From an uncultured Actinomycetes bacterium (GTDB taxonomy: Bacteria > Actinomycetota > Coriobacteriia > Anaerosomatales > PHET01): DNA of 64,000 nt. The notes under the pieces were generated by a model. That model saw only the letters and a program-made list of their open reading frames with translations, had not been told where the DNA came from and did no database searches. The stretch is taken from NCBI GenBank assembly GCA_963726325.1, contig CAVSCA010000007.1, forward strand, positions 34,392 to 98,391. The letters run 5' to 3'. Below are positions 2,507 to 23,583 of the stretch, piece by piece (positions within the stretch are counted from its first letter, which is position 1; every line of letters begins with the position of its first letter). The translations under genes were made by a program, and so were the position numbers.

Positions 2507-3528
2507 GGGCTCGAGTCGCACTCAGTCCCGTGCTTGTCGGCGTCGTCGTTCGTGCTGTCCGCGGGGTCGTCCTCGTGCGTCTTGCGGCGGAGCAGCCTGC
2601 TTCCGCCTCGGAAGATGCTGCGCGGAACCGCCGTCACCGTAGGCGTGAGGTCGAACGGTTCGGGCGACTCCCAACCCAGCCACAGCGACCCCACTCGAAG
2701 AATCATCGCCACCGACGCCGCCGCGAGCATCGCCGGCAACTTGGTGATGTTGAGCCACGTGGCGAGCAGGACGTAGGTCGTGCTGCCGGCCAGGGCGGCC
2801 GTCGCGGACAAGCTTCCTCGGCGCAAGATCTCCGGCTCCCGGTCGCACAGAACGTCGCGTATCATGCCTCCGCCGATAGCGGTGACCGTACCCAGCATGA
2901 TGGCGGGGACGATCGTGAGACCCGCGACCAGCGCTTTGTCGGCACCGACAATGCAGAACAGCGCGAGCGAGAAGGCATCGATCACCGCGAGCGCGGGTCT
3001 GAGCTTTCGAGCTGCCGAGAAGAAGAACATCGCGACGAGTGCGGCTGCCAGCACGGCCCAAAGCGCGCGCGGCTCATCCAGTGCGAAGACCCCGTAGTCC
3101 TGCAGCAGCGTGTCTCGGATGATGCCGCCGCCGAGCCCGTTGACCACGGCGAGCACCATCACGCCGGTGATGTCGAACTTGAGCTGGACCGCTGTCATCC
3201 CGCCGGCAAGCGCACCAGCGAAGATCGCGGCGACCTCGAACCATACCGGCAGGAAGAGCGTCTGGGCAGTGACGGGTGTCGTGGTGGTGACCGCAGCGGG
3301 CAGGACCGATGCCACCACGCTGGGCACGACCGTCGTGACGATGCTACCGATCGTCCCGGTGCTCGCGGCGCTCGTGGTGGCCGAGGAGGCGACCGAGGCG
3401 GTTGCCGTCGTCAACGTGCTGGCCGCAGCCACGGCACTACTTGCTAGCAGGTACAGACCCGTCACGCCGCCTCCGCTCGATAGCCTCCAGCGCAGAGTGT
3501 GCCCCGTTGTGGTGCTCCAAGGCCGCAT
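2503..3528 (-). CDS. TRIC/UPF0126 (YadS-like) cation channel family membrane protein
   Basis: Two UPF0126 repeats ending in VVNGLGGGIIRD and VTAIGGGMIRD. The first ~90 codons are Ser/Thr/Ala/Val low complexity, so the true start may be internal. The stop shares the CTAG at 2503-2506 with porB. Confidence 0.75.
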   Translation of the reverse strand: MRPWSTTTGHTLRWRLSSGGGVTGLYLLASSAVAAASTLTTATASVASSATTSAASTGTIGSIVTTVVPSVVASVLPAAVTTTTPVTAQTLFLPVWFEVAAIFAGALAGGMTAVQLKFDITGVMVLAVVNGLGGGIIRDTLLQDYGVFALDEPRALWAVLAAALVAMFFFSAARKLRPALAVIDAFSLALFCIVGADKALVAGLTIVPAIMLGTVTAIGGGMIRDVLCDREPEILRRGSLSATAALAGSTTYVLLATWLNITKLPAMLAAASVAMILRVGSLWLGWESPEPFDLTPTVTAVPRSIFRGGSRLLRRKTHEDDPADSTNDDADKHGTECDSSP

Positions 3529-3602
3529 CTAGGGGAACAAACTTGGCGAAGACGGTTGCGCCGCGCTCACTTCGCGGTGCAGAGCAGGGAGGACATCGAG
3601 CG

Positions 3603-5012
3603 ATGGCAACACAACAGGCGCCTTCTGGCCCGCCGCTGGTCCCCAGTGGGTCGCGCGTGGTCGTGATTGTCTCGGCGGGCCCGCACCCCTCGCCACCGAC
3701 TGCGTTCGTGGTGACGCCGCCCGTGGTTGGCAAAGACCAGGGCAAGGCGCTCGCCGAACTGCAGGAGGTCGGGCTGCAGGCGCAGGTTTTCAACGACTAC
3801 AGCGACTCGCTGAAGCGCGGCGATGTGATCGGCCAACTGCCAGCGGCCGGTGCGAGTACGCCTGCAGGTAGCGAGGCGGTGCTGATCGTGTCGAGCGGGA
3901 AGGCGCCGGCGCCCACCGCGGCGGCGGTGCTGCCGGAGGTCGTAGGTAAGACGGAGCAGGAGGCGGTCTCAGCGCTGCAGCAGGCCGGGTTCTCGCCCCA
4001 GGTGGTGCGCGAGCACAGCCCCTCCGCACCCGAAGGCAAGGTCATCGGTCAGTTGCCCAGCGCTCGCTCGCTTGCCGCGGTGCCGCCGAAGAACAACGGA
4101 TGGATGCTGTGGGCCGGCATCGCAGCGGCCGTGGTGATTCTCGGCTTGCTCGCGTTCTTCTTCTTGCGCGGCTCGGGCGGCAAGGTCGTCGTCCCGGACG
4201 TGACCGGCATGACGCAGGAAGAGGCCGTGAAGGAGCTCGAGGACGTCGGCTTGGAGGTCAAGGTCACGGAGGCCGACGAGGATAAGGCCGGAGATGCTGA
4301 TGAGGGGACTGTCGTCGAGCAGAATCCGCCGGCGGGCACCGAGGTCAACGAGGGGGACGAGGAAGAGATAGTCGTCGTTCCACCAAAGACGTTGGTCCAA
4401 GTGCCTGACGTCCGCAAGCAGAACCAAGCCGACGCCACCAAGGCGCTTCAGGACGCGGGACTGGTGGTCTCCGTCACGCGGGAGTTCAGCAACACGGTCG
4501 CGAAGGGCCTCGTGATCTCACAGTCCCCGACCGCGGGCCAGAAGGTGCCACCGGGGACGACCGTGGGGATCGCGATCTCTGAGGGCCCGCAGGTCAAGAA
4601 CGTTGATGTGCCTGACGTCGTCGGCTTGAAGAAGGCCGACGCGCAGAACGAGCTGACGGATGCGGGACTCAAGGTCGTTGTCGCCGAGAGCCCGAGCGAC
4701 GATGTTGCCAAGGACGTCGTGATCGCGCAGCTTCCGGCAGCAGGCGAGTCGGTGGCCCCCGGTACGAGCATCGGCATCGTCGTGTCGACCGGTCCTGCGG
4801 CCTCGCCCGACGAGGTCAGCACCCCTGATGTGGTCGGAGTTACGCTCGCCGAGGCGCAGCAGACCGTCACTGACGCGGGGCTCGACGCGATCCCCGTGCC
4901 TGCGACAGGTAGCGGCAAGCCGGCCAACGAGGTCGTCGCGCAGTCGCCCGAAGGTGGGACCAAGGTGCAGAAGGGCAGCGACGTCGTGCTGTACTACTCG
5001 GCTGGTCCGTAG
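3603..5012 (+). CDS. multi-PASTA-domain membrane protein without kinase or PBP domain
   Basis: GGGAGGA then ATG 3603. About six PASTA-like units (e.g. VDVPDVVGLKKADAQNELTDAGLKVVV...GTSIGIVVSTGP). A single hydrophobic helix WMLWAGIAAAVVILGLLAFFFL lies at about nt 4101-4166. Confidence 0.8.
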   Translation: MATQQAPSGPPLVPSGSRVVVIVSAGPHPSPPTAFVVTPPVVGKDQGKALAELQEVGLQAQVFNDYSDSLKRGDVIGQLPAAGASTPAGSEAVLIVSSGKAPAPTAAAVLPEVVGKTEQEAVSALQQAGFSPQVVREHSPSAPEGKVIGQLPSARSLAAVPPKNNGWMLWAGIAAAVVILGLLAFFFLRGSGGKVVVPDVTGMTQEEAVKELEDVGLEVKVTEADEDKAGDADEGTVVEQNPPAGTEVNEGDEEEIVVVPPKTLVQVPDVRKQNQADATKALQDAGLVVSVTREFSNTVAKGLVISQSPTAGQKVPPGTTVGIAISEGPQVKNVDVPDVVGLKKADAQNELTDAGLKVVVAESPSDDVAKDVVIAQLPAAGESVAPGTSIGIVVSTGPAASPDEVSTPDVVGVTLAEAQQTVTDAGLDAIPVPATGSGKPANEVVAQSPEGGTKVQKGSDVVLYYSAGP

Positions 5013-5084
5013 GCAGCGGCGGAGAGGTCCGGGAGCGATTGACCGAGCACAAACGAGCCGATACCATACGTGAGCACGCGCAAC

Positions 5085-5160
5085 GGCCAGGTAGCTCAGA
5101 TGGTAGAGCAGGGGATTGAAAATCCCCGTGCCGGCGGTTCAAGTCCGTCTCTGGCCACCA
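5085..5160 (+). tRNA. tRNA-Phe (anticodon GAA), CCA encoded
   Basis: 76 nt: GGCCAGGTAGCTCAGATGGTAGAGCAGGGGATTGAAAATCCCCGTGCCGGCGGTTCAAGTCCGTCTCTGGCCACCA. It folds by hand into a cloverleaf. Anticodon stem is GGGGA/TCCCC and the loop is TTGAAAA. Confidence 0.95.
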
Positions 5161-5202
5161 TACATTCTACGAAGGCCGGCTCCCGAGGGGGCCGGTCTTT
5201 TG
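5126..5202 (+). repeat. direct repeat copy 1 (tRNA-Phe 3' half plus downstream hairpin)
   Basis: 5126-5160 is identical to 7586-7620. 5161-5202 is about 75-80% identical to 7621-7662 by manual alignment. Confidence 0.9.
5174..5201 (+). terminator. hairpin plus T-run after tRNA-Phe
   Basis: GGCCGGC (5174-5180) pairs with GCCGGTC (5191-5197, one G-U), followed by TTTT. Confidence 0.55.
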
Positions 5203-5422
5203 TGCGTGCAGGGGCGGAACTGCGGTGGCCGCAGCATGGCGGGAAGCCTGAGAATGATGCGCTTCGAGCTTCGGTCATCGGTTCCGCTGACGCGCGATCG
5301 CCGCGGCGCGCTGTGCGAGGCCCACACAAGTGGGGCTCCCCACCTGTCCGGCCGTGCAGGAGGCGCACCTTTCGGGAAGAACCAACACGCAGGTGTGCCC
5401 GTCGACCCTGGGAGGACTCGAC

Positions 5423-7393
5423 ATGAAATCAGCGACCCCCGTACGCCTCCGTTTGCTTCTCGGAGCGCGCTGTCTCCCGGTAGTCGCGGCTGTCGCGGTG
5501 CTACTTGCCACGGGGGTGGTTGCGGCACACGGGGTCGAGGCGCTCGACTATGCGGGGACACTCGAACGCGTGAACGTCAGTTCGTCAGGAGCGCAGGCCG
5601 ATCTCGACTACCTGCTTGGATACGACACTCACAAGGCCGAGGCGACGCCTGATGGTCGCTACGTTTGTTTCTCCAGCCCAGCCTCCACCTTGGTCGGTGG
5701 CGACACGAACGGTCGGTACGATGTGTTCGTGCGCGACCGTGTCACGGGCACTACGACGATGGTCAGCGTGTCCGACTCCGAAGAGCCAAGTCCGGTTGAC
5801 TCGGCTGCCAGCGACATCACTGCCGACGGCCGCAAGGTCGTCTTTCAGGCCGGATGGGAGGGATTCGTCTCCGGGGACAACAACGGGGTGGACGACATCT
5901 TCGTGCGGGACCTGACAGCGCGGACCACGACTAGGCCCATCGTCGCATTCGGGGGCGGTGAGCCGAATGCTGACAGCTTCAGCCCCGACATCACCCCCGA
6001 CGGGAGATACATCGCGTTCGGCTCGCAGGCGACGAACCTCGTGGCCACCGACACGAACGCTCAGCGCGATATCTTCGTGCGGGACCTGACTGCCGGTACG
6101 ACGACTCTTGTGAGTGTCAGCAGCGATGAGGCTCAGTCGGATGGCTACAGCAGGGCGGCCCATATCTCCAACGACGGACGATACGTCGCCTTCGCCTCGG
6201 ACGCTACGAACCTTGTGGACGGCGACACGAACGTCTCTACGGACGTGTTCGTGCGCGATCTGGTCGCAGGAACGACCACCCGTGTCGATGTGGATTCGGT
6301 TGGTGGTGAGGCCGCAAACGGCGTGACCAGCGATTCAATCAGCATGTCGGGGGATGGGCGGTACGTGACGTTTGGATCACTCGAGCAGCTGGTGAATTCC
6401 GACACCAATAGCACAGGGGACGTCTACATTCGCGACCTTCAATCGAGCGAGACCACGCTTGGAAGCGTGGGCGAAGGCGGGGTCATCGGCGACTCGTACT
6501 CCGTTGGAGGCGAGCTTTCGCCGGATGGGGAGCATGTCGTGTTCGTCTCGGCGGCCTCGAACTTCGTGGCGGGAAACACGACTCCGGCCAAGCCCGACGT
6601 CTTCGTACGCGACATCCAGAGCGGCGAGGTCGTTCTAGCGAGCGTCACCGGGTCGGGCACTGGCGGCAACGCGTACTCCGACTACGCGAAGGTTGGCGAC
6701 GACGGCAAGTGGGTGCTGTTCGAGTCCGGCGCTACTGACCTGGTGAGCGGTGATACGAATGGCAAGCGAGACGTCTTCATGGCGCAGGCTTGGTCTGGCA
6801 CCACGCTCACGTTGGCAGGCCCCGCGTCCGCTCCCGCGTACGGTGCACAGGTGAAGCTCAAGGCACGGCTTGTGAGGACGAACGGTGAAGCGGTGTCGGG
6901 CGAGTCCGTCATCTTCGAGCGTTGGACAGGGTCGACCTGGCAGTCGCTTGGCGCGGCAGAAACGACATCGACTGGCTACGCGGTCAAGTATGCGAGCGGG
7001 ATCAAGTCCAAGACGACATACCGCGTGCGATTCGTGGACTCTGTTCCATATCGCGCCGCTGGGCCGGTCGTGGCCTCGGTGAAGCCACAGGTGCGACTCG
7101 CGCGGTCGACGTCGTGGAAGACACTGGCGCGCTATCGGACGTACTACGCGAAGGGCTTCATCGCGCCCAAGCACTCGAAGGGCGACTCGAACAAGGTCAA
7201 GATCCGGGCGTACAAGAAGCGCAGCGACGGCAAGTACCACTACGTGAAGTCGTTCAAGGCGAGCTACTCCTACTACTCGTCGACAAAGACGCGGTACAGG
7301 GCGGCCGTCAAGCTCACTTCGAAGGGCTCGTGGAAGCTTGTCGCCTATCATGCCGAGGACGGCAGCACACGCGGCGACCTACGGCAGTGCTGA
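5423..7393 (+). CDS. secreted seven-bladed PD40/TolB-like beta-propeller protein with C-terminal Ig-like and Lys/Tyr/Ser-rich domains
   Basis: GGGAGGA then ATG 5423. Signal-like N-terminus MKSATPVRLRLLLGARCLPVVAAVAVLLATGVVAAHG. Seven repeats are marked by D[VI][FY][VI]RD (e.g. SPDGRYIAFGSQATNLVATDTNAQRDIFVRDLTAGTTTLVSVS). The tail may really end at 7412 (frame change near 7362 gives ...HAATYGSADYVKVK*). Confidence 0.8.
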   Translation: MKSATPVRLRLLLGARCLPVVAAVAVLLATGVVAAHGVEALDYAGTLERVNVSSSGAQADLDYLLGYDTHKAEATPDGRYVCFSSPASTLVGGDTNGRYDVFVRDRVTGTTTMVSVSDSEEPSPVDSAASDITADGRKVVFQAGWEGFVSGDNNGVDDIFVRDLTARTTTRPIVAFGGGEPNADSFSPDITPDGRYIAFGSQATNLVATDTNAQRDIFVRDLTAGTTTLVSVSSDEAQSDGYSRAAHISNDGRYVAFASDATNLVDGDTNVSTDVFVRDLVAGTTTRVDVDSVGGEAANGVTSDSISMSGDGRYVTFGSLEQLVNSDTNSTGDVYIRDLQSSETTLGSVGEGGVIGDSYSVGGELSPDGEHVVFVSAASNFVAGNTTPAKPDVFVRDIQSGEVVLASVTGSGTGGNAYSDYAKVGDDGKWVLFESGATDLVSGDTNGKRDVFMAQAWSGTTLTLAGPASAPAYGAQVKLKARLVRTNGEAVSGESVIFERWTGSTWQSLGAAETTSTGYAVKYASGIKSKTTYRVRFVDSVPYRAAGPVVASVKPQVRLARSTSWKTLARYRTYYAKGFIAPKHSKGDSNKVKIRAYKKRSDGKYHYVKSFKASYSYYSSTKTRYRAAVKLTSKGSWKLVAYHAEDGSTRGDLRQC

Positions 7394-7585
7394 CTACGTC
7401 AAGGTGAAGTAGGTCAGCGCCATACAGGTGCTGCTGCAAGCGCAATGGTCGCAATCATCCGTGGGTCGAGGCACTTGGACGACTCGGACGATGGCTACTT
7501 CACATGCCATGTCGTCACATCTGGGTACCAGTCGACCATGTCGAGCAGCTCCTTCTAGGTCCCTACTCATCAAGATCGCCAGTCA

Positions 7586-7662
7586 CCGTGCCGGCGGTTC
7601 AAGTCCGTCTCTGGCCACCATGCATTCTGCGAAGGCCGGCTCCTCTGGGGGCTGGCCTTCTG
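7586..7662 (+). repeat. direct repeat copy 2 (orphan 3' half of tRNA-Phe plus variant hairpin)
   Basis: CCGTGCCGGCGGTTCAAGTCCGTCTCTGGCCACCA without the 5' half of a tRNA. It is followed by GAAGGCCGGC...GCTGGCCTTC, a 10-bp stem. Confidence 0.9.
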
Positions 7663-7698
7663 CGTGTCTGAGCTGGGGATTCGTCCCGCGTAGCGGCT

Positions 7699-8088
7699 CT
7701 AGGGCGCGATTCGTAGCATCCGGGCGTTGATGGCGACGATGACGGTGGACGCCGACATGAGCAGCCCACCGATCGCGGGGCTGAGCAGGACTCCCGCGCC
7801 AGCCAACACCCCGGCAGCAAGAGGAATGGCTACAACGTTGTAGCCAGTCGCCCAAGCGAGGTTCTGCACCATCTTGCGGTATGTAGCTCGGGCCAACGAG
7901 AAGACGGTTGGAATGTCGTTCGGATTACTGCGCACCAGCACGACGTCGGCCGTAGCGATTGCCACATCTGTTCCGGCGCCTATGGCGATGCCCACGTCGG
8001 CTGTCGCCAGCGGCGGCGCATCGTTGACGCCGTCTTCGACCATCGCAACGACCTTGCCCTCGGATCGGATCCGCTGCACCGTTGCCAA
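7699..8088 (-). pseudogene. 5'-truncated heavy-metal P-type ATPase remnant (last ~129 codons only)
   Basis: [44 protein letters not shown]... matches the hinge and last two TM helices of CopA/ZntA-type pumps. The usual GDGxNDAP motif is degenerate. No upstream domains are present. Confidence 0.8.
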
Positions 8089-8195
8089 GGCCGGCCCGGT
8101 CTACTCGGCATGCGTCAACGGCAAGCCGAGCGAAACCGCGGTTAAGCGAAGCTAGCTTCGGGTATAAAGTAGATAACAAGCTGCGAAAGGCGGAT

Positions 8196-8648
8196 ATGAT
8201 GCCCGACATGGTGAATGTTCCTGTTCCGGTTGACCGGCTGCAGGAAGTCTATGAGGTTCTGGCGCGAAGGCCGGTTGGGTCCTCGGTCATTGGTGTGACC
8301 GAGGGTGGCTCTCCCAATGGGTGGAGCCAGGAGCTGATAGACCGCATGTTCATCGAGTCGTCGAGCGCCATGAGACGAATCCTCTGCGCACTGGCCCAGA
8401 GGTCGCCCGGCTGGGTCACCACCGGTGAGATCGCCGATGCCTCCGGGCTGACCGCCCGGCAGGTGGTTGCGTCGCTCGGACCGTTCGAGAAGCGTTGTCG
8501 CGGTCGTTACGGGATGAGCGAGCGACCATTCGCGGCAAGGGAGTTCGTCGACGAAGGCATCTTGAAGTACTCCATGCCGCCAGCAGTGGCCAGCAGGACC
8601 TTGGAACTGGCGGCACAGGTGGAAACGGACGAGAAGGTGAGCGCCTGA
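8196..8648 (+). CDS. hypothetical protein, possible winged-helix DNA-binding domain
   Basis: GAAAGG then ATG 8196 in an A/T-richer leader. The central segment ILCALAQRSPGWVTTGEIADASGLTARQVVASLGPF looks like a wHTH. No family recognised. Confidence 0.5.
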   Translation: MMPDMVNVPVPVDRLQEVYEVLARRPVGSSVIGVTEGGSPNGWSQELIDRMFIESSSAMRRILCALAQRSPGWVTTGEIADASGLTARQVVASLGPFEKRCRGRYGMSERPFAAREFVDEGILKYSMPPAVASRTLELAAQVETDEKVSA

Positions 8649-8706
8649 GTAGAACGCAACCGACCGCATCAACCGAGTCATCGTTCGCCTTCAGGAGGCG
8701 ATTCAC

Positions 8707-8853
8707 ATGTTGTGGACCATCATCGGAGTTCTGGTAGTGCTCTGGGTTCTCGGTTTCAGCTTGAACATCGGCGGCGGGCTGATTCACGCGCTGATAGTCA
8801 TCGCGCTCGTCTTGCTTGTGTTCAACCTCATCTCGGGTCGCCGAGCCGCTTAG
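8707..8853 (+). CDS. lmo0937-family small membrane protein (48 aa, below ORF-track cutoff)
   Basis: MLWTIIGVLVVLWVLGFSLNIGGGLIHALIVIALVLLVFNLISGRRAA. This matches the MLWTII...GGGLIH...GRR pattern of this family (recalled from memory). Confidence 0.65.
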   Translation: MLWTIIGVLVVLWVLGFSLNIGGGLIHALIVIALVLLVFNLISGRRAA

Positions 8854-8963
8854 GGCGACCGTCGCGGGTCGAGCCCGCTGTCTTCAGACCACTCGACTCA
8901 GCTCAAACCAACCCGGCGCGCAGCATCGAGAGCCTGCGGGCCGGAAACGAAGGGAAGTACGTC

Positions 8964-9365
8964 ATGTCCAACGCAACTATGGCTTCAGTCAATCGTAGTC
9001 AGCTCCATACCGAGGTCCGTTCACCCATCGAGACCGTCTTGGCGCGCGTGGTCTGGTTCGTGTTCGGCGCTATCGAGATACTCATCGCCATCCGGTTCGT
9101 GCTCACACTGCTCGGCGCCAACGCCGAGGCGGGATTCGTGAAGCTCATATACACGGTGTCCGATGTCTTCATGGCCCCGTTCAACGCGATCTTCAGTACA
9201 GGCCGTGTGTCGGGGGCGACCATCGAGTGGAGTGCGCTCGTCGCGATCGCCGTCTACGCACTGATCGCATGGGGTCTTGTCGCCCTGATAGGCGTCGTGA
9301 GCCCTCGTACGCACGCTCAGACCGTCGAGCGTGTCGAAACCGACGAAGACGTCCAGACCCAGTAG
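8964..9365 (+). CDS. YggT-like membrane protein
   Basis: GAAGGGAAG then ATG 8964. IAIRFVLTLLGANAEAGFVKLIYTVSDVFMAPFNAIF resembles the YGGT repeat. Two TM helices. A GC-rich hairpin follows at 9372-9397. Confidence 0.5.
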   Translation: MSNATMASVNRSQLHTEVRSPIETVLARVVWFVFGAIEILIAIRFVLTLLGANAEAGFVKLIYTVSDVFMAPFNAIFSTGRVSGATIEWSALVAIAVYALIAWGLVALIGVVSPRTHAQTVERVETDEDVQTQ

Positions 9366-9420
9366 CCTACTGCCCGCCCTCAGAGACGGGGGCGGGCATT
9401 GCCACATCCCAGTGGCAGAA

Positions 9421-9437
9421 CTTGTGAAGCTCACAAG
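9421..9437. promoter_or_regulatory. perfect inverted repeat CTTGTGA-AGC-TCACAAG upstream of the csbD-like gene
   Basis: 7-bp arms with a 3-nt spacer, 30 nt before ATG 9467 and after the hairpin of the previous gene. Candidate operator. Confidence 0.3.
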
Positions 9438-9466
9438 TAGATCACTAACCGAAAGAGGCGAGGAAG

Positions 9467-9643
9467 ATGAGCGAGCACAAGGGCGAGGACATGAAGGGCC
9501 GCATGAAGGTGGCGGTCGGCGACATCACGGGTAACAAGGACCTACAGAGGGAAGGCAAGATCGATCAGGCCAGTGCTGCGACCAAGAAGACCGTCGACAA
9601 GGCTGCTGACGCCGTGAAGGACGCCGTTAGCCCAGAGAAGTAG
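9467..9643 (+). CDS. CsbD-family general stress protein (58 aa, below ORF-track cutoff)
   Basis: GAGGCGAGGAAG then ATG. MSEHKGEDMKGRMKVAVGDITGNKDLQREGKIDQASAATKKTVDKAADAVKDAVSPEK fits the CsbD pattern G..K...G..TG...L..EG..D...G. Confidence 0.75.
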   Translation: MSEHKGEDMKGRMKVAVGDITGNKDLQREGKIDQASAATKKTVDKAADAVKDAVSPEK

Positions 9644-9669
9644 TGCCGACGGGCGTTGGGGGAGACAGA

Positions 9670-10101
9670 ATGCCGTCCGACATCAGGGTGATCCGTCCGC
9701 ATGAGTTCCTCAGATCGACCGAAGATGGACGGCTCGATCTCGAGGAGAGCAAGCGGCTGCTTGCCGAGATTGCTCTGGCGTCGCCACCCTCGAAACACTA
9801 CGACGTACTCGTCGACACACGCAGCGCTCACTCAAGAATGACCGTGTCCGACCTTCTGGACCTGGCTTCAGGACTTCGCAAGGTCCGCGGATCGTTCACC
9901 GGTAAGACGGCGCTTGTTGTTCCGCGCGAGAGGCTCGACCACGCGGAGTTCTTCGCGGCTTGCGCCGAAGACAGGGGCTTCGAGGTGAGTGCGTTCACCT
10001 CGCTGGGCGATGCGATGACCTGGCTGATTGATGCTGAAGCCAGCACCGAGCGCCAGCTCGAGGGAGCACGGACTAGCGGGGGCGACTTGGGACTGGTGTG
10101 A
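9670..10101 (+). CDS. hypothetical protein
   Basis: GGGGGAGA then ATG 9670. Intact 143-aa ORF. No family recognised. Confidence 0.5.
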   Translation: MPSDIRVIRPHEFLRSTEDGRLDLEESKRLLAEIALASPPSKHYDVLVDTRSAHSRMTVSDLLDLASGLRKVRGSFTGKTALVVPRERLDHAEFFAACAEDRGFEVSAFTSLGDAMTWLIDAEASTERQLEGARTSGGDLGLV

Positions 10102-10373
10102 TACCGGACGCCTGTGTTTCGTGCCGGCGGAATGCCAGCCTCGCTGCCGTGTCGGCGGTCGGCAGACCTGCTCGACGCCGTCTGCGGTGACCGACCGCTT
10201 GCACACCGGGTACATGACCCGGCCGCCGCCTGGGTATCGCAAGCTGCTGCGCGGCTGCGACTCGGCTGTCAACATACGCTACGGGGTATGCTCACCCGTG
10301 CGTGCTCCATCGCGGCGCAGGGTTGACGCTCGTGTTTCCCTCTCATAGTCCGCCTGGAGAAAGGCAACACAGC

Positions 10374-10730
10374 ATGGCAGACACTCTCAGGATCGCTGTT
10401 CCCACCAACGGTGACGGCGGGCTGGATGCTCAGCGATCGGCGCATTTCGGTCACGCCGATTCGTTCACGATCGTCGAGGTCGCCGACGGGGCTATCGTTG
10501 GGGACCACGCGATGGCGAACCCACCACACTCGCACGGCGGCTGCGGGATGACGGTGTCGATGCTCGCTGAAGCGGGCGTGAGCACTGCTATCGTCGTGGG
10601 CATGGGAGGCGGGCCGCTTGCGGCAATGAATGCGCATGGGATGACCCCGTTCTTCGACGACCAGTCGCCCACCCCTCGCGACGCCGTTCAAGCGGTTCGT
10701 GGAGGGCAGACTGGCACCCTTCGGAAGTGA
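10374..10730 (+). CDS. NifB/NifX-type (dinitrogenase FeMo-cofactor biosynthesis domain) protein
   Basis: GGAGAAAGG then ATG 10374. RIAVPTNGDGGLDAQRSAHFGHADSFTIVEV...VSTAIVVGMGGGPLAAMNAHGM is the typical fold signature. Confidence 0.7.
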   Translation: MADTLRIAVPTNGDGGLDAQRSAHFGHADSFTIVEVADGAIVGDHAMANPPHSHGGCGMTVSMLAEAGVSTAIVVGMGGGPLAAMNAHGMTPFFDDQSPTPRDAVQAVRGGQTGTLRK

Positions 10731-10792
10731 CCACACCTGCCGAGGGCACTAGTGAGCGGCACGATCGACCAGAGCATCGGGAAGGGCACGAC

Positions 10793-11242
10793 ATGGATGT
10801 AGTGAAGGCACGCTGGGCGACGAACCGCCAGTTCGTCGGATGGGACTCGAAGAACCACGGGATCGTCATGGACACTCCCGCCGAGGGTACCGGCGAAGGC
10901 ACGGGTTGGCGCCCGGTCGAGCTGCTGCTGCTCGGCTTGGCCGGATGCACGGGCGTCGACGTGGTATCGATCCTCGAGAAGAAGCGCGAGGACGTGCGCG
11001 GTCTCGAGATAGAGGTGAAGGGCGAGCCGTTCCTCGAGGACCATCCGCACTACTACGAGTCGATCGAAGTGCTCTACCGAGTGACCGGGGTCGGCATCAA
11101 GCCGGAGTCGGTGGCCCGCGCGATCGAGCTCTCCGAGGACAAGTACTGCTCGGTGAAGGGCAGTCTCGGACCGCAGTGCGTCGTGACCACGAGTTTCGAG
11201 GTCCTCGAGTTCGAGCCTCAGATCGGGCCGAGGGGTCGCTGA
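10793..11242 (+). CDS. OsmC-family peroxiredoxin-like protein
   Basis: ATG 10793. RPVELLLLGLAGCTGVDVVSIL and SEDKYCSVKGSL carry the two conserved Cys motifs of OsmC/Ohr. Confidence 0.8.
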   Translation: MDVVKARWATNRQFVGWDSKNHGIVMDTPAEGTGEGTGWRPVELLLLGLAGCTGVDVVSILEKKREDVRGLEIEVKGEPFLEDHPHYYESIEVLYRVTGVGIKPESVARAIELSEDKYCSVKGSLGPQCVVTTSFEVLEFEPQIGPRGR

Positions 11243-11556
11243 TGTTCGGATGGGGAGTCAAGACCGTCACCACCGATGAGCTCGCCGACGCACTCGGCCG
11301 GGGCAAGCAGGTGCTCATCGACGTGCGCGAGCCCCACGAGTTCGCCGCCGGGCACGTCAAGGGTGCCGTGAACGTGCCGCTGGGTCAGCTCGCCGACAAG
11401 CTGGGGCGTTTCGACCGCAGCGCCGAGACGTACGTCATCTGCCAGTCCGGCCATCGCAGCGCGAGCGGAGCCCGGTTGCTCAAGCGGGCGGGCTTCGAGC
11501 ACGCGTACAGCGTCAAGGGCGGTACTTCGGCGTGGCGAGGGCGACTGGTGCGCTAG
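11242..11556 (+). CDS. single-domain rhodanese sulfurtransferase
   Basis: The start overlaps the OsmC stop (TGATG). LIDVREPHEFAAGHVKGAVNVPL and the active-site loop YVICQSGHRSASGA are present. Confidence 0.85.
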   Translation: MFGWGVKTVTTDELADALGRGKQVLIDVREPHEFAAGHVKGAVNVPLGQLADKLGRFDRSAETYVICQSGHRSASGARLLKRAGFEHAYSVKGGTSAWRGRLVR

Positions 11557-11665
11557 CTCGTTCACGACACAAGCTCCACACGTTCACTTCGCATTCATAC
11601 GGGGCCAATACCCTCCGAGGTATCGGATTCCCGCCGCACCCGCGGCATGACGAAGGGGACGCAGG

Positions 11666-12851
11666 ATGAGCTACGAACGTACGGACCGCGCGGCGCAGAA
11701 GCGCTCGCGAGTGATCAGATGGTCGGTGCTCGGCGTCGTCCTCGTGGGGATGACGGCGATCGTGACGGCACACCAGTTCGTCGCGGGAGCGGGCAAGCCC
11801 GTGGGCGTGGATGCGCTGTGTCCCTTTGGCGGCGTGGAGACCCTCTTCTCGCTGATCGCCGGGGCCGGCTTCATCGAGAAGACCGCAGCAAGCGCCGTCG
11901 TCCTGCTCGTCGGGATGCTCGGCATGGCGCTCGTCATGCGACGCTCGTTCTGTGGGCAGATCTGCCCGCTTGGCGCGCTGCAGGGAATCTTCGGCTCGAT
12001 CGGCGGGAAGCTGTTTCGCCGTCGGCCCGAGATCCCCAAGGCGATCGATCGCCCCGCCCGGTTCCTCAAGTACGGCGTCCTGGCGTTCTTCGCGGTGTGG
12101 ACCTGGCAGGCTGCGTCCTTGGTGATGCGCCCGTACGATCCGTGGGTCGCCTACGCGCACATCACCTCGGCGGAACTGTTCGCCGAGTTCGGCATCGGTG
12201 TCGCGATACTGGGCGTCTCTCTGGCCGGTTCGCTCGTCTACGAACGGTTCTTCTGCAAGTACCTGTGTCCCACCGGCGCGGTTCTCGGCTTGGTGTCGAA
12301 GGTCAGCCTGTTCGGCATCAAGCGGGACGAGGATGCTTGCATCAACTGCAGCGCGTGCGACAAGGCGTGCCCGATGAACATCGAAGTCTCGACCGCTCAA
12401 GTCGGTCACGTCCTCGGAATGCATCTCGTGCAACGAATGCGTCAACGCCTGTCCGGCCGCCGGCGCGCTTGAGGTCGAGCGGGGCCGGGGGCGCAAGCTG
12501 AGTCCCGCACTGGTCACGGGGATCGTGGTCGGCCTGATCGCAGTGGTGATCGGCGTGAGCACGGCCGCCGGCGCATTCGCGTGGCGGATGCCGACGCTTG
12601 GCGAGGCGATCGAGCAGCAGCACGAGTCGGGCGGCTCGGAGTCGGAGGCGCCCTTCGATTCCAGCGTGATCAAGGGCTACATGTCGATGAAGGAGATCTC
12701 CGAGGCCACCGGCATCCCGGCCGAGGCGTTCGTCACGAAGTGGGGCGTGCCGGAGTCGGACCTCTCCAAGCCCATGAAGGAGATCAAGGACCAGTACGGC
12801 TTCTCGCCCGATGACGTCAAGGTGTGGGTGGAGGGTGAGCTAGCGAAGTAG
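11666..12851 (+). CDS. NapH/MauN-like membrane polyferredoxin with C-terminal soluble extension; frame change near 12395-12415
   Basis: CX3CP motifs FCGQICPLG and FCKYLCPTG. Ferredoxin motifs CINCSACDKACP (frame 2) and CISCNECVNACP (frame 0, continuous with ORF 12525-12851). Confidence 0.75.
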
Positions 12852-14162: not shown

Positions 14163-14503
14163 GTGCAGATCGAGGGCGAAGCCAAGCGAGTGACCATCTT
14201 CATCGGCGAATCCGACCGCTGGAATCACAAGCCGCTGCACACGGCCATCGTGAGCTGCTGCGCGAGAGGGGCGTAGCCGGTGCGACCGTGGTCAAGGGCG
14301 TCGAGGGCTTCGGGAAGAACAGCCGGCTTCACACGGCGAGCATCCTGCGGCTGTCCGAGGACCTTCCGGTCGTGCTGACCTTTGTCGACAAGCCGGAGCG
14401 CGTCGAGGCCGTCTTGCCCGCGATCGACGAGATGGTTGGCGGAGGGCTGGTCGTTGTGGACGATGTCCACGTGCGCCGGTACTCGGGTGCCGAAGACGGG
14501 TAG
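14163..14503 (+). CDS. DUF190 (crcB-associated) protein; one base apparently missing near 14250
   Basis: VQIEGEAKRVTIFIGESDRWNHKPLHTAIV (frame 0) continues as ...VKGVEGFGKNSRLHTASILRLSEDLPVVLTFVD (frame 2). Restoring GTGGAG at ATCGTGAGCTG joins them. Confidence 0.8.
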
Positions 14504-14515
14504 CATCGGACTGGG

Positions 14516-15308
14516 CTAGGCCCGTCTGAGCGCCTCTGCCAACCGCGGCGGCAGCCCCGCCGACGTCATCGCAGCGGCGACCGACTCGACGTCGTAGGAC
14601 ACGCGGTGGACGACCGCACCGACCCACACGTCCGGCTGTCGCCCGCCACGCCCGCCGCCGAGTCGGCGGTGGTCGCTCGCACCTCGTGCTCCGTGCCCAG
14701 CACGACCTCGACCCAGCACGCGCGCGGGTCGCCGTCCTTGGGCTTGCCCGCGGATCCGCTGCTGATGTAGTGGACGGTCCGCCCGTCGCCGGCCGACAGG
14801 CTTCGGTGGTACGGGATGTGGATGTGGCCGACGCACACCACGTCGGCTTCCGCCTGATCCGCCAGGCGGGCCAGCTGCTCGTCGGTGCGATCCGGCAGCA
14901 GGTACTCGTTGATCTTGCGCGGGCTGCCGTGAGCGAGCAGGATGCGCGCCGCGCCCTCGGCCAGCCGGATCTCGTCGCGCAGCGCCGCGAGCCACTCGTG
15001 GTCGCGGTCGTCGAGCGCCGCATCGGTGAACTCGTACGAGGCCGCGCCGTCTGCGCGCGCTTCGTCGGTAGCGTAGTAGCAGCCGCACTCGCCTCGGCGG
15101 TTGCCGATCCCGTCGTCGTAGTTGCCGCGGATCGTGGGGATGCCCGAGCTGCGGATGCGGTCGACCACACCGGCCGGATCCGGCCCGTAACCCACGAGGT
15201 CGCCCAAGCAGTACGTCTCGGCGACGCCGCTGCCTCGATATCCGCAAGCACCGCGTCGAGCGCCACGAGGTTGCCGTGTACGTCCGAGAAGAGCGCCAGC
15301 CGACGCAT
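14516..15308 (-). CDS. YfcE/MJ0936-type metallophosphoesterase; two frame changes
   Basis: MRRLALFSDVHGNLVALDAVL, LGDLVGYGPDP...IRGNYD, LAHGSPRKINEYL and VCVGHIHIPY lie in three minus-strand frames (ORFs ending 15308, 16095 and 15373). Confidence 0.75.
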
Positions 15309-15314
15309 CGCCGC

Positions 15315-16463
15315 TTACCCGTCCTCGCGGAGCATCTTGCTCGCGATGCAGACGTCCTCGAGCTCGCCCACAACCTCGTCCGCCTCGCCGAGCAGATCGG
15401 CCTCGAGCGGCACGGGCTCGTCGGCGAAGTAGCGCCTGCGCAGGGCCAGCGCGACGTTCACGAGACCGATGAGCACGGGCACCTCGACCAGCGGCCCGAT
15501 GACCGCAGCGAACGCCTGGCCGCTGTCGATGCCGAAGACCGCGACGCACACCGCGATCGCGAGCTCGAAGTTGTTCGAGGCGGCGGTGAACGACAGCGTC
15601 GTCGTCTTCGAGTAGTTGAGCTTGATGGCCTTGGCGATGAAGAACGTGACGAAGAACATGATCAGGAAGTACAGGAGCATCGGGATCGCCACGCGCAGCA
15701 CGTCGAGCGGTAGCTGCAAGATGAACTCGCCCTTGAGCGAGAACATCACGAAGATCGTGAAGAGCAGGGCGATCAGCGTGACCGGCCCGATCCTCGGCAC
15801 GAACACCTCGTCGTACCAGCACGCGCCCTTGACTCGGCGAAGGACCACCCGCGTGAGCAGCCCGGCGAAGAAAGGTATGCCCAGGTAGATTGCGACGGTA
15901 GTGGCGATCTCGGACATCGAGATCTCGACCACCGCGCCCTCGAGCCCGAGCGCGGCGGGCAGCACGGTGACGAAGACGTAGGCATATGCGCTGAAGAAGA
16001 GCACCTGCATGACGCTGTTCACCGCCACGAGCCCTGCCGCGAACTCGGTGTCGCCCTTGGCGAGTCCATTCCAGACGATCACCATCGCGATGCACGGGGC
16101 GATGCCGATGATGATGAGCCCGGTCATGTACTCGGGATACTCACTCATCAGGGTGACTGCGAGCGTGAACATGACCAGCGGCGCAACGATCCAGTTCATG
16201 ATCATCGCGAGCGTGAGCGCCTTCTTGTCGCTCATCGCGTCGGGCAGCTCTTCGAAGCGCACCTTGCAGAAGGCCGGATACATCATGAGGATCAGGCCGA
16301 TGGCGATGGGGATGTTGGTGGTGCCTGCCGAGAACTGCTCGATGAAGGCGGGGATCGCCGGAACGAGCGCGCCGGCAAGCACGCCCACCGCCATCGCCGA
16401 GAAGATCCACAGCGTGAGGTAGCGGTCGAGGAAGCTCAGCTTCTTGGCGACTGACTCGGTCAT
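15315..16463 (-). CDS. acr3: ACR3-family arsenite efflux transporter
   Basis: GAGAGGA then ATG 16463. [13 protein letters not shown]...MMYP...GIAPCIAMV...[13 protein letters not shown] are ACR3 hallmarks. Carries an acidic C-terminal tail of about 35 aa. Confidence 0.9.
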
Positions 16464-16474
16464 CGGGGGTCCTC

Positions 16475-17442: not shown

Positions 17443-17835
17443 GTGGCCGGATCGTCTGACACCGAGACGCCCGTCAGGGCGAAGGCGTTGCTGGTCGACC
17501 CCGAGACGATGGCCGTCCGGTGGACGAACGAGCCCGTCGGCTCCTCGTTGTCCTGGCGACGCAGAGGGGCGCCGCAGCCCCTCGAACTCACGCAGGCCGT
17601 CCCGATGTCCGATGCCCTGGGGCTTCCGGATGTTGTCAGGGAGGTCTGGCAAAGCGGAATCGCCCGGCACCTTGGCGCGAATCTCGTCACGACGGGCAAG
17701 GGCGCGGTTGCCTACGTGGTGTCGGTCTATCGGCTGCCCGACGGAGCGGTACTCGTTCTCACCGAGCACGCCTGGCACGTCAAGGAGGGCGCGGAGTCGC
17801 CGAGCGGGACGCGCCGCTCGCAACGGCGCCGCTGA
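17443..17835 (+). CDS. hypothetical protein (possibly PAS-like)
   Basis: GTG 17443, 4 nt after the previous stop. Intact 130-aa ORF. No family recognised. Confidence 0.45.
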   Translation: MAGSSDTETPVRAKALLVDPETMAVRWTNEPVGSSLSWRRRGAPQPLELTQAVPMSDALGLPDVVREVWQSGIARHLGANLVTTGKGAVAYVVSVYRLPDGAVLVLTEHAWHVKEGAESPSGTRRSQRRR

Positions 17836-17842
17836 CTGCGGG

Positions 17843-18497
17843 TCACTCGAGTTCCGCGCCCGGTTCACGCTTGCAGCGGCAGGCCAGCGACTTGATGTCG
17901 CAGGGCATTCGGATCTGGGTCACGTTGATTCCCTCAGGTATCTGCAGCCTGAGAATCGGAGTCAGCATCAGTACGCCCTCGACTCCCGCCTCGGCGCAGA
18001 GGTCGAGTACGGCTTGGGCCCAATCAGGCGAACAGGCCACCAGCGCGACGCGCACATCGAGCTGCTCGTCGATTTCGGGAATGGCGCTCACGTGCTGGAC
18101 GGTGATTCCGTCGATGACCTCGCCCGCGTCCTCGGGATTCTGGGAGTAGAGCGCGACCGGGAGCAACGCCGTAGGCCTCCGGCGGGAACACCACATCGAG
18201 CGCTCGCAGCATCTCGGCGGAGCCCACACGCATCGTCGGATACTGCTCCTTGATGCCAAGGAACTCCTGGATCGCGGCGAACAGATCCGCCGCCTTGTAC
18301 CCGGCGCCGGGGCGCCCGATGGTGCCGATGAAGGAGATGTCGCGGCGGACCGTCTCCTCCTTCAGGTCCAACTCCTCGGCTATCGTCCTGGAAGTGATGG
18401 CTTCGTCCGGCCTGGCCCTGAGCAGCTCGCCCAAGTAGCAGTGGTAGAGCGACAAGCGATAGGCGGTCGCGTCGGGGACTGGTTGTGTGGCGGCCAC
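17843..18497 (-). CDS. rex: redox-sensing repressor Rex; frame change near 18160-18175
   Basis: PDATAYRLSLYHCYLGELL...ITSRTIAEELDLKEETVRRDISFIG (wHTH). A Rossmann-like part LLPVALYSQNPEDAGEVIDGITV...VALVACSPDWAQAVLDLCAEAGVEGVLMLTP continues in a second frame. Confidence 0.8.
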
Positions 18498-22115: not shown

Positions 22116-22400
22116 GGCCTGCTCCCAACAGACACCGTTGAGGAATGAGCGCGAGCTTCGTCCCTACGCAGGTAACTACCCCGATTCGGACGATCGCCCA
22201 GATGATCGTCATCGAGTCAGGGCCGCTGGCTCTGCGGCCGCGCACCGTGCGAACCTTCACACTCTGTTCTTGGCTGCGCCTCGACGCAGATGATGTACAT
22301 GGACGCAGGTCGCGAAGGTACTCGGACTAGTGCGTACCCGCTCGCGGTTCGGCTTGGGCCGATCGCGCACAGGCAGACGCGCAGCGAAGGGATCGACTCA

Positions 22401-23583
22401 TTGCCCAGAGTCTCGCTCGTGATACCGGTCTACAACGCCGAACTCTTCCTCAACGAGTGTTTGGATAGCGTGCTCGCCCAGACCTTCGAGGACATGGAGA
22501 TCATCTGCGTCGACGACGGCTCGACGGATTCCTCCCCTGAGATTCTTGCGGAGTATCTCCGAGCGCGATGACCGGATTCAGAATCGTCACCCAGCCCAAC
22601 GCGGGCGTGGCCGCTGCGCGCGGTCGAGGACTCGAACTCGCGACGGGTGACTTCGTCCTGTTCCTCGACAACGATGACTATCTTCGAAGCAACCATGGTC
22701 GAGGAGGCTTATCGCGCGTGCGTTGACGATGAAGCGGATATCGCGGTGTTCAAGATCAGGTACGTGGATGCGCGGACCGGGGACTCTGTGGAAGCCGACT
22801 GGTCGCTGCGCACGGATCTGATCCCCGACACGCTGCCCTTCAATCGCCTTGACATGCCGCAAACTCTGTTCCTCGCGTTTACGCCGTCGATCTGGAACAA
22901 GATGTTTCGAAAGTCCTTCTTGCTCGAGAACGGCATCCGGCTTCGGACTGACTTGAAATACACGGACGATCTGGCCTTCACCTACACGGCTCTGGCCCTG
23001 GCGGACCGGATCACGATAGTCGACAAGGTCCTGCTCAGCTACCGTACGAGACGAGATGGGAGTCTGTGGACGAGGGCAAGCGAGTACCCCGGCGATGTGT
23101 GCGTGTCACTACTCGAGGTGAAGCATCAACTGATGAGCGCTGGGGTCTTCGAGGATGTGGAACCAGGCCTTCCTCAACGCAGCACTTCATCAATGCGTCT
23201 GGGTGCTCTCAAGCCTCAGGACCAAGGAGGGGTTCGGCGAGCTCTACTCGATACTGAAGACGAGCATGCTTCGCAGAGCTTGGGCATCGATCGTCTGTCC
23301 GAGGATACCTGTCTAAGGCCCCACGAGTACGAGCGATACCGCAGAATCATGGACTCGTCGCCGGAGCAGTACCTGTTCGACGAAGTCGTGCTCGCTCGGC
23401 GCCGAGATCACGGAGAGACTCGCACAGCTCTCCCGCACGAGAGACGAGAAGGCCCGTTTCCAAGAGGAGGCACGGGCGCTGAGTGCCGAGCTCGAGCGCC
23501 AGATCAGCTCAGCTGTCGCAGGCCAACGCCAGGCTCAGCTCGATCAGCCAGTCCAGCTGGTATCGACTGGGACGTCTTCCTGA
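22401..23583 (+). CDS. family 2 glycosyltransferase with coiled-coil C-terminus; at least 4 frame changes; 3' end uncertain
   Basis: [75 protein letters not shown] and [14 protein letters not shown] lie in different frames. TTG 22401 follows GAAGGGA. Confidence 0.7.

Follow-up and report, generated by a model that had tools for sequence, protein, structure and literature searches.

Background

The genomic islands catalogued by Islander regenerate the tRNA gene that they enter and carry a displaced fragment of it, which is a 3' fragment in 3760 of 3919 islands (PMC4383910); crossover positions within tRNA genes fall into two classes, one centred on the anticodon and the other in the T-stem (PMC1762012, PMC4383910). 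Cis-mobilizable elements (CIMEs) have lost their integration and transfer genes and have kept attL and attR (ICEberg 2.0, PMC6323972), an example being the CIME of Streptococcus thermophilus that is mobilized by ICESt3 (PMC6323972). A locus comparable to both was identified in the genome of an uncultured Actinomycetes bacterium (GTDB lineage Actinomycetota; Coriobacteriia; Anaerosomatales; PHET01), within a stretch of 64,000 nt (contig CAVSCA010000007.1 of assembly GCA_963726325.1, positions 34,392-98,391, forward strand) that is called the window throughout. Here an intact tRNA-Phe gene is followed by 2.4 kb of DNA with a single gene, encoding a putative secreted beta-propeller protein, and then by a second copy, in direct orientation, of the tRNA's 3' part. 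This single-gene islet is probably a CIME-like relic: a phage or conjugative element of the tyrosine-integrase type, once larger, would have been deleted down to one cargo gene.

Like the Islander islands, the islet consists of an intact tRNA gene and a direct 3' fragment, the gene being restored by sequence of the element, and its presence varies among relatives. Unlike them, it has no integrase gene, which an Islander island must hold, and at 2.4 kb with one gene it is smaller than the smallest integrase-bearing island with repeats in a survey of Klebsiella, approximately 3.5 kb (bioRxiv 10.1101/2020.11.02.365908). The tRNA fragment of the islet starts at tRNA nucleotide 42, between the two common Islander positions (anticodon-centred and T-stem). 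With the CIMEs the islet shares a content of cargo only, repeats of the attL/attR type (putative attachment sites in this case) and a site that is used by integrase-bearing elements, and in its sequence layout it matches the structural definition of a CIME. The label is a structural one, whereas descent from an integrative and conjugative or integrative and mobilizable element, and mobilization, are only putative for the islet, which also differs in its host, an uncultured high-GC actinomycete, and in its target, a tRNA gene with a terminator-restoring flank. In kind, the islet is a common sort of mobile-element leftover and represents no new mechanism or system.

A direct repeat of the tRNA-Phe 3' end

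The intact tRNA-Phe gene (anticodon GAA; 5085-5160, plus strand) is recognized by both ARAGORN and Rfam (RF00005, 65.4 bits). As the sequence-only reading of this DNA had stated, its last 35 nt (5126-5160) recur exactly at 7586-7620; the exact run is even 36 nt, since position 5161 equals position 7621. Strong identity (56 of 58 positions, direct orientation) extends over copy 1 (5126-5183, plus strand), which comprises tRNA nucleotides 42-76 and 23 nt that include the 5' arm of a terminator hairpin, and copy 2 (7586-7643, plus strand), apparently of attR type, which comprises the displaced tRNA-Phe 3' fragment (7586-7620) and 23 nt of flank. Beyond copy 1 the similarity fades, with matches at 16 of 24 positions for 5184-5207 and at 7 of 33 for 5208-5240; between 5161-5202 and 7621-7662, 34 of 42 positions are identical (81%, a hand count from the alignment), close to the 75-80% that had been estimated. 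On the other side, 5' of tRNA nucleotide 42, only 6 of 12 positions match (7 of 12 for nucleotides 30-41 in a hand count), and the anticodon loop is not conserved between the copies. The interval bracketed by the repeat is 2,460 bp long. Copy 2 is not called as a tRNA by ARAGORN or Rfam, no third copy of the 35-mer is present in the window even with 3 mismatches allowed, and the repeat did not arise by chance in 100 shuffles (0 matches).

With 2 mismatches in 58 positions and 8 in the following 24, the pair is no product of collapsing or copying a repeat; a chimeric join at shared sequence gives one copy, not two copies 2.4 kb apart; the right junction (7585/7586) would need a molecule joining islet DNA to tRNA nucleotide 42; and brackets of this sort, described below, are present in two other assemblies, which are independent and come from different samples. 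It is thus highly improbable that copy 2 arose in the assembly, by false duplication at the strain level or by a chimeric join within the contig of a metagenome-assembled genome (MAG), even though the source is evidently a MAG contig (the propeller protein, P0001, lies on a contig of 303 kb), the relatives are MAGs too, and frameshift-split genes in the window (Rex, V-ATPase subunit I and the C-terminus of the propeller) suggest indel errors.

The site in related genomes

The gene that immediately precedes the tRNA, which encodes a PASTA-domain protein, served as anchor for finding ten related loci. Nine loci, from MAGs and metagenome contigs of uncultured Actinomycetes, have one intact tRNA-Phe gene only. 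L001-L003 are from species-representative genomes, L002 and L003 being titled uncultured Actinomycetes MAGs and L001 uncultured Eubacteriales, and L007-L011, L015 and L016 are from public assemblies. The tRNA-Phe gene directly follows the PASTA gene in all ten, and the tRNA of the window is 100% identical to those of L003, L007 and L008. The propeller gene is absent from every one of the ten loci.

The site lacking the islet is illustrated by L003 (approximately 89% nucleotide identity), in which 9926-11617 aligns to window positions 3518-5207, and the sequence on the far side of the islet (7583-7687) matches the same tRNA end and continues to 11637 (L003 11533-11637, 85%). The corresponding alignment to L008 pairs window 7583-7682 with 11574-11672 at 91%, and L007, L008 and L009 all present the same picture as L003 at the tRNA flank. 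Past position 5207 the window diverges from every relative. In L003 and L011 the flank of the tRNA runs on to genes for a winged helix-turn-helix (wHTH)-like protein and a YggT-family protein, which in the window follow copy 2. There the block at 8148-10101 (plus strand), which in relatives comes after tRNA-Phe, encodes a 166-aa protein, the YggT-family protein and a 152-aa protein; "wHTH-like" is a label from reading the sequence of the 166-aa protein, which has no family match. Window 8139-10054 aligns to L003 11700-13618 at 86%, and window 8134-10072 aligns to L007 at 92.5%. L007 has its own insert of 0.7 kb before the wHTH-like/YggT block, L008 is without the block, and L009 ends 237 nt past the tRNA. 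The PASTA protein of L011 is only 58% identical, yet in this locus also homologues of the wHTH-like and YggT proteins (66% and 69% protein identity) are encoded directly after tRNA-Phe and its terminator. Because even so distant a locus has it, the adjacency of tRNA-Phe, wHTH-like and YggT genes is old, and the propeller interval is an insertion in the lineage of the window.

The sequence-only reading had taken the pairing of an intact tRNA gene with a direct copy of its 3' half behind it for the footprint of integration, had proposed a comparison of relatives for empty sites, and had named as the contrary outcome a propeller gene with both repeats in all relatives. Five relatives (L003, L007, L008, L009 and L011) proved to have tRNA-Phe and its flank with no propeller gene, which supports the footprint, and the contrary outcome did not occur.

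Two other structures were considered in the same comparison and rejected. The low-GC block at 7644-10100 was evaluated as an older island ("E0") ending at the second repeat copy of L008 (see below), and was discarded because even the distant L011 has the wHTH-like and YggT genes after tRNA-Phe. A decayed repeat copy at the matching spot in L003 and L007 scored 9 against a null mean of 7.2, and 12% of null windows scored as high.

Terminators and a proposed mode of insertion

A terminator hairpin follows the tRNA at 5168-5204 (plus strand; fold of -27.6 kcal/mol, z -4.0), and its 3' arm and U-tract (5184-5207) fall within the inserted DNA. The displaced hairpin (7629-7660) and the flank shared with relatives, which contains GTCTGAGCTGGGGA, together occupy 7629-7687 (plus strand; fold of -28.9 kcal/mol, z -4.7), and from its position this predicted hairpin could end the propeller transcript. 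The 3' arm of the terminator hairpin, kept in both copies and obliged to pair with an identical 5' arm, may account for much of the weaker similarity past 5183.

By the favoured reading, a circular element with an attP made up of the 3' part of the tRNA (from about nucleotide 42) and a terminator hairpin would have recombined with the chromosomal tRNA-Phe gene by site-specific integration of the tyrosine-integrase type. The element would have supplied the tRNA 3' end and terminator (5126-5207, attL), so that the gene stayed intact, and the original tRNA 3' fragment with its own terminator would have been displaced to the far end (7586-7660). Recombination, transfer or phage functions would then have been lost, leaving one cargo gene between preserved att-type repeats. 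The repeat, the hairpins, the insertion relative to relatives and the lack of an integrase in the window can be read directly, as can the integrase and attP for this tRNA in a phage (below); what we infer is the work of an integrase at the junctions and the later shrinkage of a larger element.

The structure of the terminator hairpin is kept across the relatives in at least two sequence subtypes, labelled GAAGGCCGG and GAAAGCCTCGCC (sites compared: window 5161-5210 and 7621-7670; L003:11571-11620; L007:9946-9995; L008:11612-11660; L011:11501-11545). The subtypes do not correspond to overall relatedness, L003 differing from L007, and the hairpin on the islet side is of the GAAGGCCGG subtype, as are those of the other copy in the window, L003 and L008. 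In the first 23 nt after the tRNA, neither copy in the window is as close to any relative as it is to the other copy. There are hints that the tRNA-proximal flank may have been replaced repeatedly by elements circulating among close relatives. An attempt to sort the first ~50 nt after each tRNA copy into native and element-borne sequence by similarity was abandoned as unreliable, since subtype ignores kinship and the attP of the phage has a similar post-hairpin motif.

Arms of the islet and search for an integrase

Within the islet, the propeller gene is flanked upstream by a left arm (5208-5422, plus strand) and downstream by a non-coding right arm (7394-7585, no strand assigned). Neither arm is similar to any fetched locus by blastn, belongs to an Rfam family or shows a convincing open reading frame (ORF) on six-frame reading. 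No remnant of an integrase was detected in the right arm, either by six-frame reading (an ORF at 7428-7730 has no Pfam match) or by tblastn and phmmer with the integrase of phage contig L012 (below) as query. An Rfam search over 4900-8300, which includes the leader of 215 nt, returned nothing but the tRNA. The islet has a GC content of 62.9%, compared with 68.5% upstream, and the older neighbouring block is low as well (61.6%); composition alone therefore decides nothing.

The interval was correctly described by the sequence-only reading as holding one gene and no integrase, excisionase or replication function, and the rest of the window does not supply them. Pfam scans of 60 ORFs across the 64 kb, which are housekeeping and accessory genes, gave no tyrosine or serine recombinase (no match to PF00589), excisionase, relaxase or replication protein, and no phage gene is present in the bracket or among these ORFs. 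The L012 integrase as query found nothing in the window or in the related loci. A phmmer scan with E. coli XerC and XerD, lambda Int and gamma-delta resolvase gave no match either, but is void, having missed the L012 integrase as control.

A phage attP for tRNA-Phe

A scan of viral contigs with the exact 35-mer gave no match, and one with the last 25 nt of the tRNA led to the temperate actinophage contig IMGVR_UViG_3300038679_000076 (L012/L013). The order of features in this phage is primase/helicase and then, at L013:9360-12989, CI-like repressor, tyrosine integrase (PF00589, E 4e-9; phrog_1, E 1e-35), a 45-nt match to tRNA-Phe, a hairpin with a TGTGTCT motif, endolysin, tail and tape-measure genes. 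The 45 nt are identical to nucleotides 32-76 of the L010-type tRNA-Phe, the variant of L002, L009-L011, L015 and L016 that has T at nucleotide 47 where the window has C; the full tRNA is absent, and phage genes lie on both sides. We take this block to be the probable attP of an unintegrated temperate phage genome, and the phage is a candidate for integration in relatives of the organism. A tRNA end and terminator carried by an element beside an integrase exists for this target.

Like the left end of the islet, the phage has the 3' part of tRNA-Phe followed by its own hairpin and the TGTGTCT motif. It differs from the islet in being a complete genome, in the start of its block within the anticodon loop (nucleotide 32), and in having no sequence in common with the arms or cargo of the islet. 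Neither phage genes nor similarity to phage genomes was found in the interval, the cargo protein having no tblastn match in 50,697 phage records, and the islet arms, the ATPase segment discussed below and the inserts in L007 and L008 have no real similarity to phage L013 or L014. When the tRNA and its flank were compared with the phage collection by blastn, only phage-encoded tRNA-Phe genes were returned.

Small brackets at the same tRNA in relatives

L008 repeats the 3' part of tRNA-Phe, together with the next 24 nt, in a second copy (12098-12151; first copy at 11575-11633), which brackets 0.49 kb. This second copy is decayed (80% identity over 56 nt, E 1e-8), and only the true first copy scores higher in the locus. 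Its edges, at tRNA nucleotide 44 and just after GGCTCCT, are within 2 nt of those of the repeat in the window, and it abuts the stop codon of a Se_S_carrier-like gene, the point at which homology to L003 and L007 resumes. In L016, the tRNA-Phe gene (2185-2260) is followed by a second copy at approximately 3796-3892, comprising tRNA nucleotides ~26-76 and a complete variant hairpin (~80% identity over ~100 nt), and the bracket of 1.55 kb holds HxlR, DoxX and an ORF of 99 aa. No integrase is present in the bracket of L008 or L016. Small brackets without integrase therefore occur at this tRNA in 3 of the 10 loci with enough downstream sequence (the window with 2.4 kb, L008 and L016), and an intact integrated element was seen in none of the 10.

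The near coincidence of edges bears on whether the islet could have entered with no integrase at all, as a circularized fragment from a relative with ~60-85 bp of tRNA-Phe end and terminator, by Campbell-type crossover, or as a linear fragment, by homology-facilitated illegitimate recombination. A random end is unlikely to fall within 2 nt (left) and 1 nt (right) of the independently formed edges in L008. Homology of 58 bp is marginal for a RecA-mediated single crossover, and the attP of L013 shows the tRNA end with its own terminator that is typical of integrase-bearing elements at this target. Entry of this kind is rather unlikely on these grounds, despite a repeat that is long for an att core (58-84 bp) and extends into the terminator, an islet-side hairpin of the GAAGGCCGG subtype that implies a closely related donor, and the absence of a recombinase from the 60 ORFs of the window.

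The three brackets also invite the idea of a complete minimal cassette, consisting of attP and one gene, that would rely on a phage or conjugative element targeting tRNA-Phe, whose integrase would insert and remove it in trans or, following tandem accretion, in cis. All three are small (0.5-2.4 kb) and without integrase, no intact integrated element accompanies them in the 10 loci, a phage integrase for this tRNA exists, the repeat copies of the islet are well preserved (56/58) and its gene is intact save for a terminal frameshift; cis-mobilization of such elements has been documented (PMC6323972). Such a cassette is nonetheless unlikely. A second occurrence of it was not found in scans of protein clusters or metagenomes, the nearest homologues of its gene are not bracketed by repeats, and the second copy in L008, at 80% identity and without a hairpin, points to decay rather than to an active site. 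L013 is unsupported as the cognate helper, its identity to the tRNA starting at nucleotide 32 and that of the window at nucleotide 42, and the preponderance of small remnants may reflect a bias, as MAG assembly and binning tends to lose intact mobile elements or to break at them.

It is distinctly doubtful that the tRNA-Phe of this anaerobic clade hosts a whole family of tiny integrase-less cassettes, each made up of a tRNA 3' end, a replacement terminator and one to three cargo genes and served by a phage or conjugative-element integrase encoded elsewhere. The suggestion comes from the three independent brackets, the matching edges in the window and L008, and the lack of an intact integrated element in the 10 loci.

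The cargo gene and its product

The sole gene of the islet (5423-7393, plus strand; ATG start, ribosome-binding site GGGAGGA at 5410) encodes a protein of 656 aa with, in order, a signal peptide (a signal-peptide-like N-terminus called by eye from the sequence), a seven-bladed PD40/TolB-like beta-propeller, a beta-sandwich, and a basic tail rich in Lys, Tyr and Ser. The seven repeats have a period of 58 aa, six with the exact motif D[VI][FY][VI]RD and one with a degenerate form (DVFMAQ). Pfam PD40 (PF07676) matches with 35 bits against a cut-off of 20.9. The AlphaFold2 model has seven four-stranded blades (aa 45-455; predicted local distance difference test (pLDDT) above 90 in most 10-residue blocks), followed by the beta-sandwich (aa 460-537, pLDDT 62-83) and the tail (below 50). 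The layout anticipated from the sequence thus holds in the model for blades, beta-sandwich and tail, with the amendment that one of the seven blade motifs is degenerate, and the profile and structure searches that had been advised place PD40 above its cut-off and TolB at the top of the Foldseek matches.

The best Foldseek matches in the PDB are TolB (3iax_A, E 1.3e-12), an S9 peptidase propeller and tricorn (1k32_A); no PDB relative was found at the sequence level. The cargo protein resembles TolB/PD40 proteins in its PD40 repeats and propeller fold, and differs from them in having seven blades, no TolB N-terminal or peptidase domain, and an added beta-sandwich and basic Lys/Tyr/Ser-rich module. 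The N-terminal TolB domain is absent in Pfam and NCBIfam scans, the propeller starting straight after the signal peptide, and no tol or pal genes are adjacent. The protein is not a TolB orthologue; as modelled, it is without a catalytic domain and may have a cell-envelope or ligand-binding role.

In a search of 5.8 billion protein clusters, the very large propeller family (~8000 matches) yielded a single entry with more than 57% identity, P0001, which is the protein of the window itself and the sole member of its cluster. The closest full-length homologues are 54-57% identical, and a scan of metagenomes with this protein as query produced a single match, distant and partial. No tRNA or repeat is present near homologues P0016 and P0019, which are on short contigs. 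The homologues end in TYGSxDYVKVR, and the equivalent in the window, TYGSADYVKVK with its stop codon at 7410-7412, is reached only in another frame, from which it appears that a frameshift of 1 nt near 7373-7379 shifts the end of the propeller gene. The C-terminal ~110 aa of the protein (window 7070-7390) and the C-terminus of a pectate-lyase-like protein of 926 aa from L011 (19307-19627) have 34% identity, and the Lys/Tyr/Ser-rich tail seems to be a C-terminal module that secreted proteins of this clade have in common.

Origin of the islet

The sequence-only reading had offered a decayed island, a minimal element mobilized in trans, or the scar of a larger rearrangement. The decayed island is favoured, although the three are not fully separable, and the probable course of events is the integration of a tyrosine-integrase element followed by the loss of all but its cargo gene.

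Several findings weigh against this account. The enzyme is one that we infer rather than see, there being no integrase in the bracket or among the 60 ORFs of the window, and neither arm of the islet holds a detectable remnant of a larger element. Strong identity between the repeat copies starts at tRNA nucleotide 42, which is ten nucleotides 3' of the anticodon-loop start in L013 and L016, and seven short of the T-stem. It is the first copy of the tRNA end, in L008 and in L016 alike (in L016 from reading of the alignment), that precedes the flank resembling those of other relatives, an order that fits the classical picture only if the post-hairpin motif is also part of the attP sites of elements, as appears to be so in L013. 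The first 23 nt after the tRNA (5161-5183) are nearer to copy 2 of the window itself (21/23) than to any relative, a result that an origin in situ would also give. Finally, neither a tRNA nor a repeat is found near the closest homologues of the cargo protein (55-57%), whose contigs are short, and the islet thus gives no sign of having travelled as a unit.

The ATPase remnant and the region downstream of tRNA-Phe

To the right of copy 2 is the 3' remnant of a copper P1B-type ATPase gene (7699-8088, minus strand; 129 codons, matching positions 423-542 of the 542 of TIGR01511, E 5e-45). It lies 78 nt to the right of the tRNA-derived part of copy 2, and the first 60-70 of these nucleotides are common to relatives; the remnant lies within a segment of ~430 bp (7688 to ~8125) that is missing from L003, L007 and L008. 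Because it is to the right of the flank shared with relatives and outside the bracket, the segment is evidently the product of a separate gain-and-truncation event and not a part of the islet. The truncated P-type ATPase that the sequence-only reading noticed at this position is therefore real, but belongs to an indel of its own. Functional P-type enzymes carry the conserved motif GDGxNDxP(A)LA, from which the sequence of the remnant departs, as fits a decaying pseudogene.

Lineage-specific inserts are found at one point between the post-terminator motif and the wHTH-like gene in three loci, L007 (9998-10704, 0.7 kb), L008 (11673-12097, 0.43 kb) and the window (7688-8125), and are mutually unrelated in sequence. 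The short stretch downstream of tRNA-Phe is a general hotspot. Farther away, a block at 14.3-16.5 kb of the window consists of an ORF at 14292-15308, which has no family match (its homologue in L015 matches Metallophos), and an SBF transporter gene. In L002 the block at window 14546-16464 is found at 7939-9885, with the SBF part, inverted upstream of the PASTA gene; L016 (12-573) has only the left part, also inverted upstream of the PASTA gene, and L015 (3996-4682) has the left part just downstream of tRNA-Phe. These placements indicate that the ~9 kb from tRNA-Phe to 14.3 kb is a larger variable slot, with a GC content of 0.61-0.66 compared with 0.69-0.71 outside.

Other features of the window and its relatives

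A promoter-like site (TTGACC-17-TACCAT; 5039-5067, plus strand), found by consensus scan and a pattern match only, lies 18 nt 5' of tRNA-Phe. Several genes of the window are split into overlapping ORFs in different frames or are otherwise broken: rex (17843-18497, minus strand) has its DNA-binding N-terminus separated from the CoA-binding part, the gene for V-ATPase subunit I is broken in two (59920-61498, plus strand), the last ~11 codons of the propeller gene are out of frame (7373-7412, plus strand), and a glycosyltransferase-2 is cut to a fragment of 93 aa (22290-22571, plus strand). Similar gene splits are present in L003 and L007, a pattern more suggestive of the indel errors common in long-read MAG assemblies than of true pseudogenes. 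A "tRNA-Ala(CGC)" of 85 nt called by ARAGORN at 17788-17872 (plus strand) is below the Rfam gathering score and overlaps coding ORFs, and is probably a false call.

Five relatives (L003 and L007-L010) have a gene of ~2.5 kb for a secreted protein between the glycine-transporter-like and PASTA genes (L003:7191-9926), which is wholly absent from the window (site at 3515-3518). The product in L009 (838 aa) has a weak S55-peptidase match and a Big_3_5 Ig-like domain, and L008 has a Big_3_5 fragment at this place.

Implications

The islet is a clean and precisely bounded case from a poorly studied lineage, an uncultured actinomycete in which a tRNA gene gained one gene that encodes a secreted protein; the empty site is clearly defined, a helper class is at hand as a candidate, and the islet helps to date gene flow in the clade. 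In relatives, tRNA-Phe is a recurrent insertion site, for which a phage attP and integrase are present in a public viral contig. For the annotation of MAGs, island finders that depend on an integrase would miss an islet of this kind. If small brackets such as these do move in trans, they would represent a compact natural design for cargo delivery, in which the att site repairs both the tRNA and its terminator.

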